Assembly: GCA_035622585.1 (NCBI GenBank)
Contig: DASPVC010000060.1
Coordinates: 119,096 to 183,095, forward strand
Source: Candidatus Acidiferrum sp.
GTDB taxonomy: Bacteria; Acidobacteriota; Terriglobia; Acidiferrales; UBA7541
Reading direction: 5' to 3'
Length of the DNA stretch: 64,000 nucleotides
Part shown: piece by piece, positions 38,619 to 57,067 of the stretch
Layout of the letters: each line of letters begins with the position of its first letter
Position numbering within the stretch: the first letter of the stretch is position 1
Program-made: the position numbers and the translations under genes
The notes under the pieces: model-generated
What the model saw: only the letters and a program-made list of their open reading frames with translations
What the model was told of the DNA's origin: nothing
Databases searched by the model: none

Positions 38619-38634
38619 CGTGACACGCGTCACA
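38619..38634. promoter_or_regulatory. CRP-type box cGTGA-CACGCG-TCACA
   Basis: 9/10 match to TGTGA-N6-TCACA, centred about 54 nt upstream of the USP ATG (38681). Confidence 0.45.
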
Positions 38635-47563: not shown

Positions 47564-49891
47564 GTGACTACACACGGTGTTAACTTCTGCCTTGCTATGA
47601 AGGAAGAGGGGGCCCTGCAAGCATCGTCCCTAAGGGTAGCGTCCACAGATCGTTGGAGGCTGTTGGAATCGGCCCCCGACGCCATGGTAATCGTGGACGG
47701 AGGTGGACGGATTGCATTCATCAATTCGCAGGCCGAACGCATGTTCGGCTATTCCCACAGCGAATTGCTGGGCCAGCCCGTAGAAGTGCTTACCCCTGAG
47801 TCAGTTCGGCACGCGCACGTTCGTCATCGCGCAGAATACGCGGCGGCCCCTCGCACTCGCGAGATGGGGTCCGGCCTCGAACTTAGGGGTCGCCGAAAAG
47901 ACGGCAGTAGCTTCCCGGTAGAAATCAGTTTGAGCCCGCTGCAAGAGCCGGACGGCCGATTTTTCGTCAGCGCGATTCGCGACATAACGGAGCGACGGCA
48001 GATTCAAGAAGCCTTGCGATTAAGCGAGGAGCGCTTTCGTCGGCTCGTCGCAGAGGTTCGCGACTACGCCATTTTTCTGCTCGATCCGCAGGGGAACATA
48101 CGAACGTGGAATGTGGGCGCCGAGAGGATCAAAGGCTACCGGGCCGATGAAGTTATCGGTAAGCATTTTTCGATGTTCTTTCCCTCCGAAGAGGTCGAAC
48201 GTGGCAGGCCCGCGGCCGAACTGGCAGAGGCCGCCAAAGAAGGCCGCGCCGAGGACGAGGGCTGGCGCATTCGAAAGGACGGCTCGCGTTTCTGGGCGAG
48301 CATCGTAATTACCGCGCTCCACGACGAGAATGGCAAGCTACTCGGTTTCACGAAAGTCACGCGGGACATCACGCAACGAAAGCGCGTCCGCGAGGCGTTT
48401 CTTCTCGAAGTGACGAACGCCCTTCTTTCAAACCTTGACATCACAAAGTTGCTCCGAGCCATCGGCCTGTGCGTTCGTCAAGTGAAGGAATTCGACTACG
48501 CAACGCTGGCGCTCTATGATGCCGAGACAAAAATGCTTCGCGTGCAGCCGGTGGGAGCGGGACCCGGCAACGAGCCGTTTCCTCCCGGAATGCTAATCCC
48601 GATTACAGGCTCGCCGAACGGATGGTCCTACGTCTCCGGCAAGCCTCTTTTGCTCAAGGGTTTGCCCGGAGAGCAATTCCCCTTTCAGATCCCTGAGCAC
48701 GTCGCGCAGGCATCGGTGAAGTCCGGCTGTTGGGTGCCGCTGATCGGCAGAGAGGGACCGCTTGGCACCCTCAACCTCTTCAGCCGGAAACCCGGTGCCT
48801 TCTCCGAGGACGATTTACCAGGGCTCTTGCAGCTGGGCGCCCAAGTTGCTGTGGCGCTCGATAATGCCCTCGCCTATCAGCGCCTGGCCGACCTGAATGC
48901 AAGGCTGGCAAAGGAAAAGCTCTACCTAGAAGACGAGTTGCGGACGAGCGCTAGTTTCGAGGAGATCATCGGAAATAGCAACGCCCTCAAGCGGGTCCTC
49001 AAACAAATTGAGACCGTCGCGCCCACCGAGTCGACGGTTCTGATTCTGGGAGAAACCGGCACGGGAAAAGAACGGCTCGCACGGGCGGTTCACGATCTAA
49101 GTCCCCGGAGGGACCGGCCCTTCGTGAAGGTCAATTGCGCTTCCGTGCCGGCAGGGCTTCTTGAAAGCGAACTCTTTGGCCACGAGAAGGGCGCCTTCAC
49201 CGGTGCGATCGCGCAGAGAATCGGACGATTTGAGCTGGCTCATCAGGGCACGCTCTTTCTCGACGAGGTGGGAGAGATTCCCCTCGAGCTCCAGCCGAAG
49301 CTCTTGCGCGTCCTGCAGGAGAAGCAATTCGAGCGCCTCGGCAACAGCCGCACGATGACGACTGACGTTCGCATCGTGGCGGCCACCAACCGTGACCTAG
49401 GCAAGCTGGTGGCGTCCGGCCAATTCCGTAGCGATCTCTATTACCGCCTCAGCGTGTTCCCGGTTCTCGTGCCGCCGCTGCGAGAACGAGCCGAGGACAT
49501 TCCTCTGCTTGTCCATTATTTTCTCTCCAAATTTTCGAAGATCATGGGAAGAAACATCGAGTCGGTACCTCCGGACACAATGCAGGCTTTAGTCCGCTAC
49601 CCGTGGCCGGGCAACGTCCGGGAACTCGAGCACCTCGTAGAACGGGCTGTGATTCTCTCGCCCGGACCTGAACTCCGCATTCCGCTCACAGAACTTGCCT
49701 ACGGCGACGAGGTGATTCCCAAAGCGTCCTCGACGCTGCACGATATGGAGCGGGAGCACATTATCCGCATTCTGCGTGAGACCCACGGCAAGATCGGTGG
49801 TCCCGGCGGCGCCGCCGAGCGGTTGGGCATGAATCGAACCACGCTCAATTCGCGCATGCAGAAATTGGGAATCTCCCGAAAAGACTTCTGA
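47564..49891 (+). CDS. Sigma54-dependent transcriptional activator (PAS-PAS-GAF-AAA+-Fis HTH)
   Basis: Two PAS modules and a GAF-like region. [15 protein letters not shown], the exact GAFTGA loop (EKGAFTGA), and a C-terminal [24 protein letters not shown]. Start is uncertain (47564 GTG or 47597 ATG). Confidence 0.9.
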
Positions 49892-49932: not shown

Positions 49933-49948
49933 TGTGACGCGCATCACT
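49933..49948. promoter_or_regulatory. CRP-type box TGTGA-CGCGCA-TCACt
   Basis: 9/10 match to TGTGA-N6-TCACA between the activator stop and the hsp20 start. It overlaps a 7-bp inverted repeat, GTCACAG-N4-CTGTGAC (49921-49938). Confidence 0.45.
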
Positions 49949-50086
49949 GTCCGCTTTGTCCCCTTCTGGAATCTTAGGCTTGAGCGCTGGCCTTCGTGAT
50001 TCCTGTCAGCGCCGGTCGCAGGACAGGACCGGGGGACCGAACCATCAAAGCCAGCGCTGATATTGATGGAAAGTGAGGAAGGTAAG

Positions 50087-50614
50087 ATGGCTGAGAAAGG
50101 GGCAGCTGTACAACTCGCTAAACAACCGACCACTATCGCGCCGCTCGGGGTGGAAAACCTGTTCGAGCGAGCAAATAACATCTTCGATGCGATTTCCCGC
50201 CGGGCCTACGACATCTTTGAGAGCAATGGCAGGCTGTTCGGCCGCGAACTCGAAGACTGGTTCCGAGCCGAAAGGGAATTGCTCCATCCCGTTCACGTTC
50301 ATGTCACCGAGTCAGGCGACGCCCTAGAGGTCAAAGCCGAAGTGCCAGGCTTCAACGAGAAGGAATTGGAAATCAACGTCGAACCCCGCCGGCTTGTGAT
50401 TAGCGGCAAGCGAGAATCGAAAAAAGAGGAGAAAAAGGGCAAGACCGTCTACTCCGAGGCCTGCTCCGACCAAATCATGCGCATGATCGAGCTCCCGGCC
50501 GACGTGGAAACGGAAAAAGTCACAGCGACACTAAAGAACGGCGTTCTTGAACTGACTCTTCCCAAGTCAGCCAAGGCGCGCAGTGTGCGCATCGAGCCAA
50601 AAGCCGCCGCGTGA
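50087..50614 (+). CDS. Hsp20/alpha-crystallin small heat-shock protein
   Basis: ALEVKAEVPGFNEKELEINVEPRRLVISGKRE...IELPADVETEKVTATLKNGVLELTLPK. SD GAGGAAGG precedes 50087. Confidence 0.9.
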   Translation: MAEKGAAVQLAKQPTTIAPLGVENLFERANNIFDAISRRAYDIFESNGRLFGRELEDWFRAERELLHPVHVHVTESGDALEVKAEVPGFNEKELEINVEPRRLVISGKRESKKEEKKGKTVYSEACSDQIMRMIELPADVETEKVTATLKNGVLELTLPKSAKARSVRIEPKAAA

Positions 50615-50763: not shown

Positions 50764-51252
50764 ATGAAGGTGCAAGACATAATGATGAGAACACCTGCCT
50801 GCTGCACGCCAGAAACCAATCTTGGCGCTGCAGTCGAAATCCTCTGGAACCGCAATTGCGGCATGCTCCCCGTGGTGGACGCTAGGCAGAGAGTGATTGG
50901 GGTGATCACAGATCGCGACCTATGCGTGGCCTTGGGAACCCGCAACCGGCTGCCCGGCGAAATCACCGTGGGGGAGGTTCTGAGCGGAGAGGCTTTTACT
51001 TGTCGGACGGAGGACGATATCCACGCGGCGCTGCAGACGATGGCCGCGAAAAAAGTCCGTCGCCTCCCTGTGGTGGATGAAAGCGGCGTTCTGCAAGGGA
51101 TCCTGTCAATGGACAACGTTGTCCTCCATGCAGAGTTGGGCGGCTGGAATCAGTCGGCCGAACTCTCGCAGGAGGACATTGTCAGAACATTGCAGCAGAT
51201 CTACGGTCCGCGGCTGCCGCAAGTGGTGCGGGCGCGCGCGATGGTGGTCTGA
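50764..51252 (+). CDS. Stand-alone CBS-pair domain protein
   Basis: Two CBS motifs: MLPVVDARQRVIGVITDRDL and RLPVVDESGVLQGILSMDNV. Confidence 0.88.
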   Translation: MKVQDIMMRTPACCTPETNLGAAVEILWNRNCGMLPVVDARQRVIGVITDRDLCVALGTRNRLPGEITVGEVLSGEAFTCRTEDDIHAALQTMAAKKVRRLPVVDESGVLQGILSMDNVVLHAELGGWNQSAELSQEDIVRTLQQIYGPRLPQVVRARAMVV

Positions 51253-51454: not shown

Positions 51455-52660
51455 ATGACAACCGATACCTATTCAAGCAGCGCAAGAGCAGGAAGTAAAG
51501 AAGCAACCTATGCGGCATTGGCAGCCGAGCATGTTGCTCCGTGCATTTCAATCTACCTGACGAGCGGCGTGGGAGCCGACGTTGCCAAACAGCAGCTTCC
51601 GCGAGTCAAAAGCCTACTTCGCGCAGCGGAGGCTGACCTGCGGAACTCGGCGATGAGCCTCGAAGAGGCGGAAGCATTCTTGACGTCCAATTGGCGCGCC
51701 GTTGAAGAGGGGCAACCGCCGCATCCCATTGCTGAGGCTCTCGCAGTGTTCATTAGCAAGGATTTCTTCGGCTTCAGCCACCTGCCCGCGCCCGTAATAG
51801 ACCGGGTCATGGTTGGCGAAGAGTTCTTCGTGCGGCCGCTGCTGTCTTGTCTGCCGCATGAGGACCGATTTTTCGTTCTCACTCTCAGCCAAAAACATGT
51901 GAAGTTACTGGAAGGCTCACGCCGCGGATTGCGCGAGCGCACGCTGTGGGATACGCCAGAAAGCCTTCGCGAAGATTTCGAGGGATACAGCTTCGGCTTC
52001 GAGAGGCAATATCAGATGCATACGGCCTCTTCGCCGGAGTCCCTCCAGAAAGGAGCTGTCTTCCACGGCCGCTCGCTCCGCCACAAGGACCGGATCGCTC
52101 ACTTCCTTCACGACGTCAATCAAGGCGTCGTCACCGCGCTTAAGGACCAGCCGGGCCCGCTGATCGTGGCCGCACTCGACTATCTGGTCCCAATTTATAG
52201 GGAGGTGAACACTCACACGCAACTCCTCCAAGAGACCATTGGCGGAAATCCTGACCTGCTCTCGCCAAATGCAATCTACACCGCCGCCTGGAACATTGTC
52301 GGGAAAGAGCTTTCCAAAACGACCGAGCACGCATTCGCTGTGTACACCCAGCACATGAACTCGCCGCTCACGTCGAGCAATCTTCGCGAGACTGTTGCTG
52401 CGGCGCACCGCGGGCTTGTCCGTTTCCTGTTTGTGCCGGCTACAGGTGAGCGGTGGGGTTCTCTGGTGCCGCCTGAAACAGTGCATGTCCACAGCGTGCA
52501 GGAACCCGGCGATAGCGATCTCTTGAATCTCGCAGCGATTCTGACGCTTCGCCACGGGGGACAAGTGTATGCCTTGCCGCCGGGCAATCTGAGCGAAGGG
52601 GCCGATATGGCCGCGGTATTTCGGTACGCACTAGGGTCGCAAGCCGCAGGCGTTGCTTAG
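51455..52660 (+). CDS. Hypothetical protein, probably a bacterial eRF1-like (baeRF-family) protein
   Basis: [39 protein letters not shown] and a C-terminal [19 protein letters not shown]...AAVFRY match my recollection of baeRF-type proteins. Not verifiable here. Confidence 0.5.
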
Positions 52661-52692
52661 GCCAGTTCGACAGGCCCACAAGGAGAGAAGCG

Positions 52693-54315
52693 ATGCCGGG
52701 CAAACAACTGCTTTTCCGATCTGCCGCGCGGGAAAAGGTCCTCAAGGGAGCGACGGCGATCACCGACGCCATTCGCATCACCCTGGGCCCGAAGTCCAAG
52801 TGTGTGCTGATCCAGAAAAAGTGGGGCAAGCCCGTTGTCTGCAATGACGGCGTCACGATCGCCAAAGAGATCGAGTTCGAAAACGCGGAGGAAAATCTTG
52901 GTGCTCAGATGATCCGCGAAGCCGCCGAACGCACTGGCGACGTTGTGGGAGACGGCACCAGCACGGCGTCAATTTTGACGAACGCGATTTTCGCGGAGGG
53001 CTTGCACAACATCGCCGCTGGCGCCAGCGCGGTTGACTTGAAACGCGGCCTCGACCGCGGCCTCCGCATCGCTGTCGAAGCTCTTAAGAAGCTCGCGCGC
53101 CCTGTGACTGGCCGCCTGGAAAAAAGCCAGGTCGCCACGATTTCCGCTCACAACGATAGCTCCATCGGCGAACTCGTCGCCGATGCCGTCGAAAAAGTCG
53201 GCGCGGAGGGTGTGATCACGGTCGAAGAAGCGAAGACGACCGAGACGACACTCGAGTTGGTCGAAGGAATGCAGTTCGATCGCGGTTATATCTCGCCTTA
53301 TTTCGTCACCGACGCGGCCAAGATGGAGGCCGTGCTCCTTGATCCCGTGATCCTGATCCATGAGAAGAGAATCAGCAATCTTCAAGACCTGCTGCCCCTG
53401 CTCGAAGAAATCTCCAAGGCCGGGCGGTCTCTTCTCGTCATCGCCGAAGATGTGGATGGCGAAGCTCTCGCGACGCTGGTGGTGAATAAGGTTCGCGGAG
53501 CTCTGCTTTCCGCCGCCGTCAAGGCGCCTGGCTTCGGCGACCGGCGGAAGGAGATGCTGCAGGACGTCGCCATTCTGACCGGCGGACAGGTGATCGCCGA
53601 GGAACTCGGCATCAAGATCGAAAATGTCACGCTCGATCAGCTCGGCAAGGCCAAGCGTGTCGTCATCGACCGTGACAAAACAACGATCGTCGAAGGCGCC
53701 GGATCGAAGCAGGGGATTGAAGCGCGCTGCGCAGACATCCGAAAGCAGGTCGAACTCTGCAAGTCCGATTACGATCGCGAGAAGCTGCAGGAGAGGCTGG
53801 CGAAACTCGCGGGGGGCGTGGCCCTGATCCGCGTCGGCGCTCCTTCTGAAGCGGAGTTGAAAAACCGCAAGGAAGCCTTCGAAGACGCCATCAGCGCCAC
53901 GAAAGCCGCCATTGCCGAGGGCATCGTTGCGGGCGGAGGCCTCGCGTTCCTTCGCCTGATCGAAGCGGTGGGCAAGGAAGAGGCAAATTGTACAGGTGAT
54001 GAGCGCACCGGGCTCACCATTCTGAAACGCGCTTTGGAGGCTCCGACGCGCCAGATCGCCGAGAATTCCGCATTCGACGGCGGCGTCGTTGTGGATCGAA
54101 TGAGGTCCGGGCAGGGCGATTTCGGATTCGACGCAGCCCGCGGCGAATATGTCGATCTGGTGAAGGCGGGAATCATCGACGCAGCGAAGGTGGTGCGCGT
54201 CGCGCTCGAAAATGCCGTGTCCGTCGCGAGTGTCCTGCTGCTCACCGAAGCAACACTCACCGAGATTCCCGAAAAAAAAGAAAGAGCAGCAAGTCAGGAA
54301 TTGGCTGAGGTATAA
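52693..54315 (+). CDS. groEL: GroEL-type chaperonin paralog with no adjacent groES and no GGM tail
   Basis: [22 protein letters not shown] and [12 protein letters not shown]. The C-terminus [14 protein letters not shown] replaces the Gly-Met repeats. Confidence 0.92.
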
Positions 54316-54379
54316 GTAAGGGCCGCTTCCCAAAGCGCACTGCAGGAATCAGGCTTGGGGCGCGCGGAGATGGATTCAC

Positions 54380-55267
54380 ATGAAGCTCTTGATCGCCACC
54401 GACCTCTCGCCAACTTCGCATTGGGTAATCGACGCCGTGAAAGGGCGCCCCTGGCCTGCGGGGACCGAGGCGTGCATTCTCCATGTAGTCGATCTCACGC
54501 CGTTTCCGCTGGGCGCCGAACTCATGGACTCTGCGCGAAAAGCGGCCGAGTCGTCCGTGAAATCGATCAGCGATAGCCTCGCAAAATTAGGGCTCAAGAT
54601 TTACACCGAGGTCTTCCCGGGTGCTCCCCGGAGTGCGGTGCCCGAATACGCGAAGAATTGGGGGGCTGACTTCGTAATGGTCGGATCTCACGGGAGCACC
54701 GGCATTGGACGCTTCCTGCTCGGGAGCGTGGCGCAAGCCGTAGTTCGCAACGTTCCCTGTTCCGTCGAAATCGTGCGACACAGGCCGGATCGCAAGCCGG
54801 CTCCGGGCGAGGGCCTGAGAATCTTGGTCGCAACGGATGGCTCGGATTGCTCCGCCGCGGCGGTTCGATCAGTCGCCACGCGCCCCTGGCCGCCTCGGAC
54901 CTCGATTCGAGTCATCAGCGCTGTTGCTCCTTTCATCCCGATCGCCGATGCTGCCTCGGCCTACTTCTACGCGAGTCAGTCAGTCTTGGCAGCCCAAGCC
55001 GTTGAAGAGGCGGGTCGGTCACGCGCGACCGAGGCCATCGCGCGGGCCGGCGATCTCTTCCGCGGGGCTGGGGTCACCGGGGTTGAAACTGGCGAGCCGA
55101 TTCTCGGTGACCCGAAAGCCGTGATCCTGGACGAAGCGCAACAGTGGGCCGCAGACATCATCGTCGTCGGCTCGCATGGCTGGCATGGCTTGGATCGCCT
55201 GATGATGGGTAGCGTCTCCGAGTCCGTCGCCATGCACGCGCATTGTTCCGTGGAAGTGATTCGGTAG
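54380..55267 (+). CDS. Tandem-domain universal stress protein
   Basis: LLIATDLS, FVMVGSHGSTGIGRFLLGSVAQAV and CSVEIVR; the second domain has IVVGSHGWHGLDRLMMGSVSESV and CSVEVIR. Confidence 0.88.
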   Translation: MKLLIATDLSPTSHWVIDAVKGRPWPAGTEACILHVVDLTPFPLGAELMDSARKAAESSVKSISDSLAKLGLKIYTEVFPGAPRSAVPEYAKNWGADFVMVGSHGSTGIGRFLLGSVAQAVVRNVPCSVEIVRHRPDRKPAPGEGLRILVATDGSDCSAAAVRSVATRPWPPRTSIRVISAVAPFIPIADAASAYFYASQSVLAAQAVEEAGRSRATEAIARAGDLFRGAGVTGVETGEPILGDPKAVILDEAQQWAADIIVVGSHGWHGLDRLMMGSVSESVAMHAHCSVEVIR

Positions 55268-55489: not shown

Positions 55490-55505
55490 TGGCTCAACTC
55501 TTGCA
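55490..55505 (+). promoter_or_regulatory. Sigma54 promoter TGGCTC-AACTC-TTGCA (canonical -24 GG / -12 GC spacing)
   Basis: Matches TGGCAC-N5-TTGCW at 13 of the 16 positions, and at all spacing-critical ones. The C of the -12 GC (55504) is 12 nt from the A of the STAS ATG (55516). Confidence 0.55.
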
Positions 55506-55515
55506 TTTGTGATCC

Positions 55516-55836
55516 ATGGACAGAACAAACGTGCTGCGGATCACACGAAGCAACGAACCAAACTCACTCGGGCTGAGACTCGAAGGCCGATTGGAAGGAC
55601 CTTGGGTCGAAGTGCTGAGAAAGACTTGGGCGGACACGCTCGATCATGACCGGCGCCGGCGAATCGTCGTAGATCTGAGCGGCGTCAGCTTTGCGGATTC
55701 CGTGGGTCGCACGCTGTTGCTCAACATGCAAGGAGAGGGCGTAGGGCTCATCAAGGCATCGGCATTTCTGCGCGAAATGCTGAAACTAAACGGATTGAAC
55801 CTCAAGCAGCACGACGCGAATGAAAAAGGAGAATGA
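55516..55836 (+). CDS. STAS-domain protein (anti-sigma-factor-antagonist-like)
   Basis: 106 aa. RIVVDLSGVSFADSVGRTLLLNM is a typical STAS core. Confidence 0.75.
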   Translation: MDRTNVLRITRSNEPNSLGLRLEGRLEGPWVEVLRKTWADTLDHDRRRRIVVDLSGVSFADSVGRTLLLNMQGEGVGLIKASAFLREMLKLNGLNLKQHDANEKGE

Positions 55837-55837
55837 A

Positions 55838-56557
55838 ATGCGAGCTCCATACGGCATGGAACTGATCGAGGACTGCAAAACTTGTCCGATGAGGAAAAAC
55901 GGCTTCTTCTGCCAGCTGGCCGGCCCTGCGCTTCAAGCGTTCAGCAACGTCAAGTTCACGACCACATACCCGGCGCAGGCGGTTCTATACGTCGAGGGAC
56001 AAGCCCCACGCGGGATTTACATGCTCTGCAAGGGCCGCGTCAAGCTCACGATGAACTCTGCCGACGGCAAGACCCTGATCGTCCGCATCTGCGAACCCGG
56101 AGAGATTCTCGGCGCACATGCGGCGATTTCGGGAGAGACGTACGAGCTGACGGCCGAAGCTCTTCAGCCCTGCCAAGTCGACTTCGTTCGGCGCGAAGAC
56201 TTCCTGAAACTGCTCCGCGAACAGCCCGATATCGCTGCAGCTGTGATGCGGCAGCTCAGCACTGGTTACCGCCGGGCCTGCCAGGAAATTCGCTACCTTG
56301 GCCTCTCCCGGTCGGCGAGTGAGAAGGTTGCGCAATTCCTGCTGGAAACGGCGTCCAGCGGCCAGCAGACGAACCAGGGAAAGCGCTTCCATCTGGGTTT
56401 GACCCATGAAGAAATCTCTCAGATCGTCGGGATTTCTCGCGAGACGGTGACGCGCACCATGACTGAGTTCAAGAACAAAGCCCTGATCGCGACAAAAGGC
56501 GCAATGATCGTCATCCGGAATGAGTCCGGGCTCAGGGCGCAGGCTGCGGCGGCGTGA
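55838..56557 (+). CDS. Crp/Fnr-family transcriptional regulator with a CRP-type recognition helix and an N-terminal Cys cluster
   Basis: cNMP-binding-like beta-roll. HTH is EEISQIVGISRETVTRTMTEF (compare E. coli CRP GCSRETVGRILKML). N-terminus is DCKTCPMRKNGFFC. SD AAAGGAG precedes 55838. Confidence 0.88.
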   Translation: MRAPYGMELIEDCKTCPMRKNGFFCQLAGPALQAFSNVKFTTTYPAQAVLYVEGQAPRGIYMLCKGRVKLTMNSADGKTLIVRICEPGEILGAHAAISGETYELTAEALQPCQVDFVRREDFLKLLREQPDIAAAVMRQLSTGYRRACQEIRYLGLSRSASEKVAQFLLETASSGQQTNQGKRFHLGLTHEEISQIVGISRETVTRTMTEFKNKALIATKGAMIVIRNESGLRAQAAAA

Positions 56558-56602: not shown

Positions 56603-57067
56603 ATGGAAACAACCCACAGATACGAGGTCAGAGCTAAATCGACCAGACCGCGCTCTGGTGTGGTCGCATCGGATGCGATAGCGCAGCCGATTGTGTTCAG
56701 CGTCCCGCCGGAATTTGCCGGCGAGCCTCGCGTCTGGACGCCGGAGCACTTTTTCGTCGCTGCCATCGTCGCGTGTTATGTGAGCACGTTTTCCGGCATG
56801 GCGGAAATATCTAAGTTCCATTTCATTTCGCTTGAGGTCGATGCTGAAGGGACGCTCGAGAAAGACACAAGCGGCTGGAAGTTCACGGAAATCAAGCTGC
56901 GCCCGGCTTTGAGAGTTTCTCAGGAGAAAGACGGCGACCGAGGCGTTCGGTTGTTGGAGAAGGCGGAGCGCACGTGTCTCATCGCGCGCTCGATCACGGC
57001 GAAGGTCACGCTGGAACCCACGATTAAGGTTTCCCCGGAAGTCGTGCTCTCAGAAGCGGCGCCATAG
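56603..57067 (+). CDS. OsmC/Ohr-family peroxiredoxin-like protein
   Basis: 154 aa. PEHFFVAAIVACYVSTF and ERTCLIARSI (two conserved Cys). Confidence 0.8.
   Translation: METTHRYEVRAKSTRPRSGVVASDAIAQPIVFSVPPEFAGEPRVWTPEHFFVAAIVACYVSTFSGMAEISKFHFISLEVDAEGTLEKDTSGWKFTEIKLRPALRVSQEKDGDRGVRLLEKAERTCLIARSITAKVTLEPTIKVSPEVVLSEAAP

Follow-up and report, generated by a model that had tools for sequence, protein, structure and literature searches.

Balon is a bacterial hibernation factor that sits in the ribosomal A site together with EF-Tu, independently of mRNA, and holds the peptidyl-transferase centre inert (Helena-Bueno et al., Nature 2024, PMC10901736). Its genes are typically found in stress operons, together with Hsp20, DnaK/J, OsmC/Y, RaiA, RtcB and Hrp1; nascent chains on hibernating ribosomes are reported to be preserved by it, and vicinity to Hrp1 and induction by hypoxia have been described for mycobacteria (PMC10901736). 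The baeRF-1 clade was defined in 2019 by Burroughs and Aravind, who predicted most of its families to be non-catalytic A-site binders linked to HPF (PMC6514570). Here we compare with these systems a locus of Candidatus Acidiferrum sp. (assembly GCA_035622585.1, contig DASPVC010000060.1, forward strand, positions 119,096 to 183,095), a stretch of 64,000 nucleotides (nt) that we call the window, in which positions 51455-54315 hold an open reading frame (ORF) of 401 amino acids (aa) followed by a groEL paralogue. Judged by sequence profile and predicted fold, the 401-aa gene belongs to the known Balon family as a new, divergent member from Acidobacteriota, and the locus is a well-organised but ordinary stress locus, not a new kind of system.

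The ORF starts at an ATG behind GGGGAAAGTGGGGAG, and its homologues begin at the same Met. It scored 109.1 bits against Pfam baeRF_family3 (PF18845; E 3.8e-31, residues 138-320), where the gathering cut-off is 31.5 bits, and it also passes the gathering cut-offs of baeRF families 7, 6, 8 and 11. A profile made from 75 homologues matched the Psychrobacter urativorans Balon (PDB chain 8rd8_B) over its full length (E 7.7e-30, query 17-390 against chain 3-369) and, with an E of 9.1e-7, the Mycobacterium smegmatis Balon Msmeg1130 (8v9j_z); the single sequence alone also matched 8rd8_B over its full length (E 1.3e-4). Chain 8rd8_B is the Balon defined by cryo-electron microscopy, though it was deposited under a misleading name. 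In a Foldseek search with the AlphaFold2 model of the protein (pLDDT 83, pTM 0.79), ranks 1-6 were all Balon, Msmeg1130 and Rv2629 chains (E 3e-20 to 4e-12, TM 0.58-0.68), while aRF1/eRF1 and Pelota/Dom34 ranked below them (E 1e-11 to 1e-4). An earlier sequence-only reading of this DNA had recognised in the ORF, from a few motifs, all of them present in the sequence, an eRF1-like protein of the baeRF type, and the Pfam and Foldseek comparisons that it had proposed bear this out. It had also stated that no such factor coupled to a chaperonin was known to be characterised; since profile and fold match Balon, described in 2024 with its chaperone-containing stress operons, the eRF1-like family counts as characterised.

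The solved Balons (P. urativorans 8rd8/8rdv/8rdw; Msmeg1130 8v9j/8v9l; M. tuberculosis Rv2629 8v9k) have a three-domain aeRF1-like fold in common with the window protein, and the C-terminal ...AAVFRY aligns with the ...ALVTRY end of Balon, 10 further residues following the FRY here. As in baeRF-1 family 3 (PF18845, PMC6514570), the full N-M-C architecture is present, a two-strand insert lies in the C (Pelota-like) domain, and no catalytic Gln is conserved. The model has a two-strand hairpin (334-338/342-346) in which W334, G335 and H346 are at least 90% conserved, a candidate counterpart of the beta-hairpin inserted in the EF-Tu-binding C-terminal domain of Balon. Whereas the paper on these families stresses a linkage to HPF/YfiA, the neighbours here are Hsp20, CBS, GroEL and USP genes; unlike in Balon loci, no RaiA/HPF gene is adjacent in the window, and the HPF of this genome lies on another contig. 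Ribosome binding by the window protein is predicted, by analogy with the solved complexes.

Several observations concern the evolution of this protein. In a comparison of the window with four related loci (L113, L114, L115 and L120), Balon evolves faster than any other gene of the island: against L113, identity is 94% for a neighbouring ABC ATPase, 89% for the activator, 86% for Hsp20, 89% for the CBS protein and 98% for GroEL, and 72% for Balon. Its N domain diverges most (57-71%), and among close relatives conservation is highest, at 77-97%, in the M-domain loop 176-210, which is modelled poorly. As to the HP motif and extended N-domain loop with which Balon contacts the decoding centre, an H-P stands at residues 91-92 (QPPHP), elsewhere than in the loop after strand 1.

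The second gene encodes a complete chaperonin. The ATP-site motifs ITLGPK, GDGTSTA and VAGGG are present, as are the apical and other motifs GYISPYF, LLPLL and EALATLVVN; the apical groove residues are intact, and the protein aligns end to end with solved GroELs. Among 151 genomes of the same order, GroEL matches are bimodal, with 21 matches in 20 genomes at 74-100% identity and the rest at 60% or below. For comparison, 20 members of this paralogue clade and 7 housekeeping copies were extracted from relatives. All seven housekeeping copies have an upstream groES and a ...GGGMGGMY end; in the paralogue clade none of 20 has an upstream groES and all 20 end in a charged tail, TE-x-PE-x-KKE.... 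Mean identity is 80% inside the clade and 57% between clades. Fifty-seven positions are fixed differently between them, 45 equatorial and 3 apical, and the equatorial changes include K105H, E462D and A464G. These positions are, as we take them, equivalent to K105, E461 and S463 of E. coli GroEL, presumably inter-ring contacts, and the clustering hints at an altered ring-ring assembly or an avoidance of mixed oligomers. In a wider sample of the phylum few genomes carry the clade (8 of 400 others, 63-76% identity).

GroEL paralogues that stand alone and lack a GGM end are common and have been well reviewed: about 30% of genomes hold duplicate groEL genes (PMC3578752), in 770 of 4,861 genomes there is a groEL with no groES next to it (PMC5406781), and species with multiple chaperonins always retain one GGM-tailed copy (PMC11978752). 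Myxococcus GroEL1/2 (PMC3578752, PMC5406781) likewise include a second groEL with no adjacent groES and a non-GGM C-terminus, beside a canonical copy, and mycobacterial GroEL1, with its His-rich tail, is of the same stand-alone type. The window GroEL is a member of this known kind of paralogue; unlike the described ones, it belongs to a particular Acidobacteriota clade, which has an acidic/charged tail (E-K-P-E-E-K-K-E...), differs by fixed changes that are mostly equatorial, and recurs in USP/Hsp20 stress islands. In three genomes that have no Balon (loci L100, L101, L103), a conserved ORF of about 100 aa (MEL..VPLGRG...LDYRLTA.GTNVEG.WEQL...) precedes the paralogue; it may resemble the MTH1187/YkoF family.

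The two genes stand in a series that runs on the same (+) strand from an activator gene through an OsmC gene. The window lies on contig C60 of an 85-contig assembly (genome G000; 4.26 Mb, 93% complete) and has a G+C content of about 59%; its genes were assigned by Pfam profile search.

47564..49891, + strand: sigma-54-dependent activator, PAS-PAS-GAF-AAA+-HTH_8 (Pfam Sigma54_activat E 3.3e-72, plus PAS, GAF and HTH_8)
49933..49948, + strand: CRP-type box TGTGACGCGCATCACT, 5' of hsp20 (1 mismatch to TGTGA-N6-TCACA)
50063..50614, + strand: Hsp20 small heat-shock protein with N-terminal DUF2934 (Pfam HSP20 E 1.1e-21)
50764..51252, + strand: CBS-pair protein, Hrp1-like (Pfam CBS, 2 stretches, E 8.9e-24)
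51455..52660, + strand: Balon-family (baeRF family 3, aeRF1-like) protein, 401 aa (Pfam PF18845, profile and fold matches)
52693..54315, + strand: GroEL paralogue, 540 aa, of the clade without groES and without GGM tail (Pfam Cpn60 PF00118 E 6.8e-68)
54380..55267, + strand: tandem-domain universal stress protein (USP; Pfam Usp, 2 stretches, E 1.6e-46)
55490..55505, + strand: sigma-54-like -24/-12 element TGGCTCAACTCTTGCA (1 mismatch to TGGCAC-N5-TTGCW)
55516..55836, + strand: STAS-domain protein (Pfam STAS_2 E 2.2e-8)
55820..56557, + strand: Crp/Fnr-family regulator, start codon uncertain (Pfam cNMP_binding and HTH_Crp_2)
56603..57067, + strand: OsmC-like protein (Pfam OsmC E 1.3e-14)

As the first gene of the island the activator is conserved, with synteny and 73-89% identity across related loci, and the Crp/Fnr regulator is 68-92% identical across syntenic loci. 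A stress cluster with Hsp20, an Hrp1-like CBS protein and OsmC is a further likeness to the solved Balons. In mycobacteria, the hypoxia and dormancy neighbourhoods of the DosR type hold Rv2629, USPs, Hrp1 (a CBS pair) and an alpha-crystallin small heat-shock protein, so that Balon, USP, CBS-pair and Hsp20 families are clustered as a stress or dormancy island in both. The window differs in belonging to another phylum, in adding a GroEL paralogue, and in its regulators: in place of DosR it has a sigma-54 activator of the PAS-GAF type and a Crp-family protein, together with TGTGA-N6-TCAC boxes.

The distribution of the pair was followed in three sets of loci. From species-representative genomes 80 family-3 loci were sampled, and the island (activator, Hsp20, CBS, Balon, optionally groEL, USP, STAS, Crp) was common to 11 of them, 10 labelled Acidobacteriota. 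Only two of the 11 (L010 and L011) have groEL; Balon is followed directly by USP or STAS-Crp in the others, and none of the 69 distant family-3 loci (Deltaproteobacteria, Cyanobacteria, Gemmatimonadota and others; flanks up to 8 kb) has a groEL nearby. In the 151 same-order genomes, where five unpublished ones (G018, G021, G029, G078, G097) were counted solely as lacking both features, the paralogue occurs in 20 and Balon in 15. The two are adjacent in five, all of the window's genus (G000, G086, G090, G039, G056); both are present but apart in two (0.5 Mb in G121, 1.2 Mb in G073). The paralogue alone is found in 13 genomes and Balon alone in 8. Among 8 close metagenomic relatives (Balon 50-72% identity), groEL follows Balon in three (L113, L114, L120), with a GroEL 94-98% identical to the window copy, and in none of the other five. 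Adjacency is therefore conserved only in a narrow lineage. One of the groEL-bearing loci, L010 (DATJXJ010000079.1), is labelled Verrucomicrobiia; it is fully syntenic with the Acidobacteriota island at 73-88% identity and its genome, G039, is listed in the window's genus, and the record probably carries a wrong taxonomic label.

The content of the island varies in other respects as well, CBS, USP and STAS each being absent from some locus. In most relatives (L003 7260-7967, L004-L009, L013, L108, L116, L118, L119) a 235-aa gene with a phosphoribosyltransferase domain (PF00156) lies between CBS and Balon; it is missing in the window, L110, L113, L114 and L120, where the CBS-Balon gap is about 115-205 nt. 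Where the paralogue occurs without Balon, it is often found among USP, Hsp20, CBS, sigma-54 activator, STAS and Crp genes (L092-L098, L105, L107). Gene trees of the activator, Balon and Hsp20, examined for a single gain of groEL, were poorly resolved, with groEL-bearing and groEL-less loci interleaved. Since each of the two genes is often found without the other and the content is variable, the island is most simply taken as a mosaic of stress genes that may or may not carry Balon and the GroEL paralogue as cargo.

Taking into consideration the homology, the fold, the missing motifs, the gene order and synteny, and the phyletic distribution, all of which the analysis shows, we conclude, with a probability of roughly 0.8, that the locus encodes a Balon-type hibernation factor in a variable stress island of a peat Acidobacteriota bacterium, that its GroEL is a spare paralogue, and that their adjacency reflects co-regulation in dormancy or stress and not a dedicated two-protein machine.

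Such a machine is what the sequence-only reading had proposed: the eRF1-like factor and a specialised GroEL would form a dedicated ribosome or nascent-chain quality-control module, in which the chaperonin takes chains from Balon-arrested ribosomes or else folds or delivers Balon. The genes are 32-65 nt apart in all six groEL-bearing loci measured, a contig from an RNA library bridges the Balon-groEL junction, the equatorial domain and the tail of the paralogue are lineage-specific, and a chaperone partner is conceivable for a factor reported to preserve nascent chains. The distribution described above nevertheless makes this very unlikely, with adjacency in one genus only (5 of 151 genomes), in 3 of 8 close metagenomic relatives and in none of 69 distant family-3 loci; either gene often occurs alone or far from the other, in sister loci a USP stands in the place of groEL right after Balon, and no link between Balon and a chaperonin was found in the literature. 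Adjacency unique to this genome had been named in advance as evidence against the module, and what the survey found, a subset of one genus, comes close to that. The presence of a groES elsewhere in the genome weighs in the same direction. A narrower version, in which the GroEL paralogue was recruited as a partner of Balon in the window's genus, for nascent chains on arrested ribosomes or for entry into or exit from hibernation, has little chance of being right; if true, it would be a chaperonin-coupled ribosome hibernation operon, which has not yet been described.

That the 401-aa protein is instead an active peptidyl-tRNA hydrolase of the aeRF1 type, or a Pelota-like rescue factor, releasing or splitting stalled ribosomes, we hold to be very unlikely. 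It does share fold and domain order with aeRF1 and Pelota/Dom34, Burroughs and Aravind leave room for rescue roles in some baeRF-1 families (PMC6514570), and the M-domain loop, FERQYQMH...QKGAVFHG, is 77-97% conserved among close relatives. But the 401-aa sequence contains no NIKS stop-codon motif, and neither a YxCxxxF codon-reading motif nor a GGQ occurs in its corresponding domains. The M-domain loop (about 176-210, low pLDDT), where the sequence-only reading had suggested checking for a GGQ-like or catalytic loop, has no GGQ and no Gln that is invariant or at least 90% conserved across the 75 homologues, and the sole GGQ tripeptide, at 368-370, lies in a strand of the C domain, its Gln varying among homologues. 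The lack of NIKS and of an M-domain GGQ, a likeness to the solved Balons, is the feature by which Balon was separated from aeRF1 (PMC10901736). In addition, the protein is bacterial, its best structure and profile matches are the non-catalytic Balons, with aeRF1 and Pelota far behind, and most baeRF-1 families are inferred to be inactive (PMC6514570).

The sequence-only reading had further described the GroEL as an orphan that keeps GDGTSTA and has lost the GGM end. Both features of the 540-aa sequence are as described, and no Cpn10 (groES) match occurs in the 64-kb window; orphan applies to the locus, not to the genome, since Cpn10 is matched once in the whole 4.26-Mb assembly, by a groES N-terminus (MAVNITPLHDRVLVRR...) that runs off the start of contig C19 (G000, bases 1-200), preceded by a CIRCE-like TTAGCACTC-N9-GACTGCTAA. 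A groES start with a CIRCE-like operator at a contig edge indicates that a housekeeping groESL operon exists and was cut by the assembly. The idea that the window GroEL is the organism's only, housekeeping chaperonin and its missing groES an assembly artefact, suggested by its being the only full Cpn60 in a 93%-complete assembly, is barely credible given this unassembled groESL, the groES-linked, GGM-tailed copy that clade-bearing relatives also carry (only 56-59% identical), and the 131 of 151 same-order genomes that have no member of the clade.

The evidence on expression is weak. The 401-aa ORF ends at 52660, and the groEL ATG is at 52693, so the gap is the 32 nt given by the sequence-only reading; it holds a Shine-Dalgarno sequence, groEL beginning after AAGGAGAGAAGCG, and a scan for sigma-70 promoters and terminators gave nothing above chance, with neither a promoter-like nor a terminator-like site between the two genes. 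Four peat metatranscriptome libraries yielded contigs, 95-99% identical to the window, that lie over parts of hsp20, CBS, Balon, groEL and USP. One of them spans 52487-53018, over the Balon stop and the groEL start, and two (records 8 and 14) bridge hsp20 and CBS; stretches without cover, such as 53948-54499, carry no interpretation. As assembled contigs, these records are consistent with co-transcription, and Balon and groEL are probably co-transcribed here.

A number of points weigh against the reading of a Balon-type factor with an optional, spare GroEL. The 401-aa protein is no more than 13-17% identical to the solved Balon chains. The loop after strand 1, which in most of family 3 has the form PTHRxGxExQQ(D/N)P and in P. 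urativorans Balon the sequence KTHREHPANDQDP, is missing from the Acidobacteriota subclade, and the contact with the decoding centre may differ, since this signature is replaced. The tight gap, 32-65 nt wherever the pair was measured, is compatible with some functional link. The RNA contigs are assembled and of unstranded origin; DNA may be among them, and they are no proof of a single transcript.

Regulatory sites were searched across the window. The core of the CRP box upstream of hsp20, TGTGAy-N4-rTCAC, is conserved in 10 of 10 aligned syntenic loci; in the window as a whole CRP-box matches number 16 against 17 expected, near-perfect ones being found only at 38619, 43389 and 49933, and none directly before Balon. 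Matches to the sigma-54 consensus (TGGCAC-N5-TTGCW, at most 2 mismatches) number 37 against 30 expected, which is not above chance; none lies upstream of hsp20, CBS, Balon or groEL, and only the site at 55490 is near consensus. From the end of this element, TGGCTCAACTCTTGCA, it is 10 nt to the STAS ATG (55516), which would imply a leaderless mRNA or one with a very short leader. A GG/GC pair in the conserved block upstream of hsp20 was considered as a sigma-54 promoter and rejected for its wrong spacing.

Between the CRP box and the hsp20 start lies a conserved inverted repeat, GCGCTGGCC ... GCCAGCGC (49984-49992 and 50050-50057), with compensatory changes in relatives, for example CGCCGGTC/GACCGGCG in L010. 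RNA-library contigs in three libraries (three runs) begin at 49982-49994, just before the repeat. The repeat may be a 5' untranslated region element of the small heat-shock protein gene; when the region was folded a long stem formed, leaving the Shine-Dalgarno sequence free, with a z of -1.66 that is not compelling.

For ribosome binding, GroES use, regulatory inputs and co-transcription, we infer the following course. Stress signals would act through the PAS-GAF sigma-54 activator, the Crp-family regulator, or both, and induce the island. Balon, a putatively catalytically dead aeRF1 homologue, would be delivered by EF-Tu and, by analogy with the Psychrobacter and mycobacterial complexes, fill the A sites of vacant and translating ribosomes independently of mRNA, keeping them inert. 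Hsp20 would hold unfolded clients, while the GroEL paralogue, through its conserved apical groove, would most likely use the single housekeeping GroES and add folding capacity; the CBS and USP proteins may sense nucleotides.

Stand-alone GroEL paralogues lacking the GGM tail and Balon genes in chaperone-containing stress operons were both already documented. What the present analysis brings is a corrected annotation: genes of peat and soil Acidobacteriota recorded as 'hypothetical' or 'baeRF family 3' appear, from profile and fold, to encode Balon-type hibernation factors. This would extend a dormancy mechanism that was discovered recently to a soil phylum that is abundant and grows slowly, and the compact, transcribed stress island, in which Balon is joined by a small heat-shock protein, by CBS and USP sensors and, optionally, by a GroEL paralogue, would offer a marker set for dormancy in peat metatranscriptomes.

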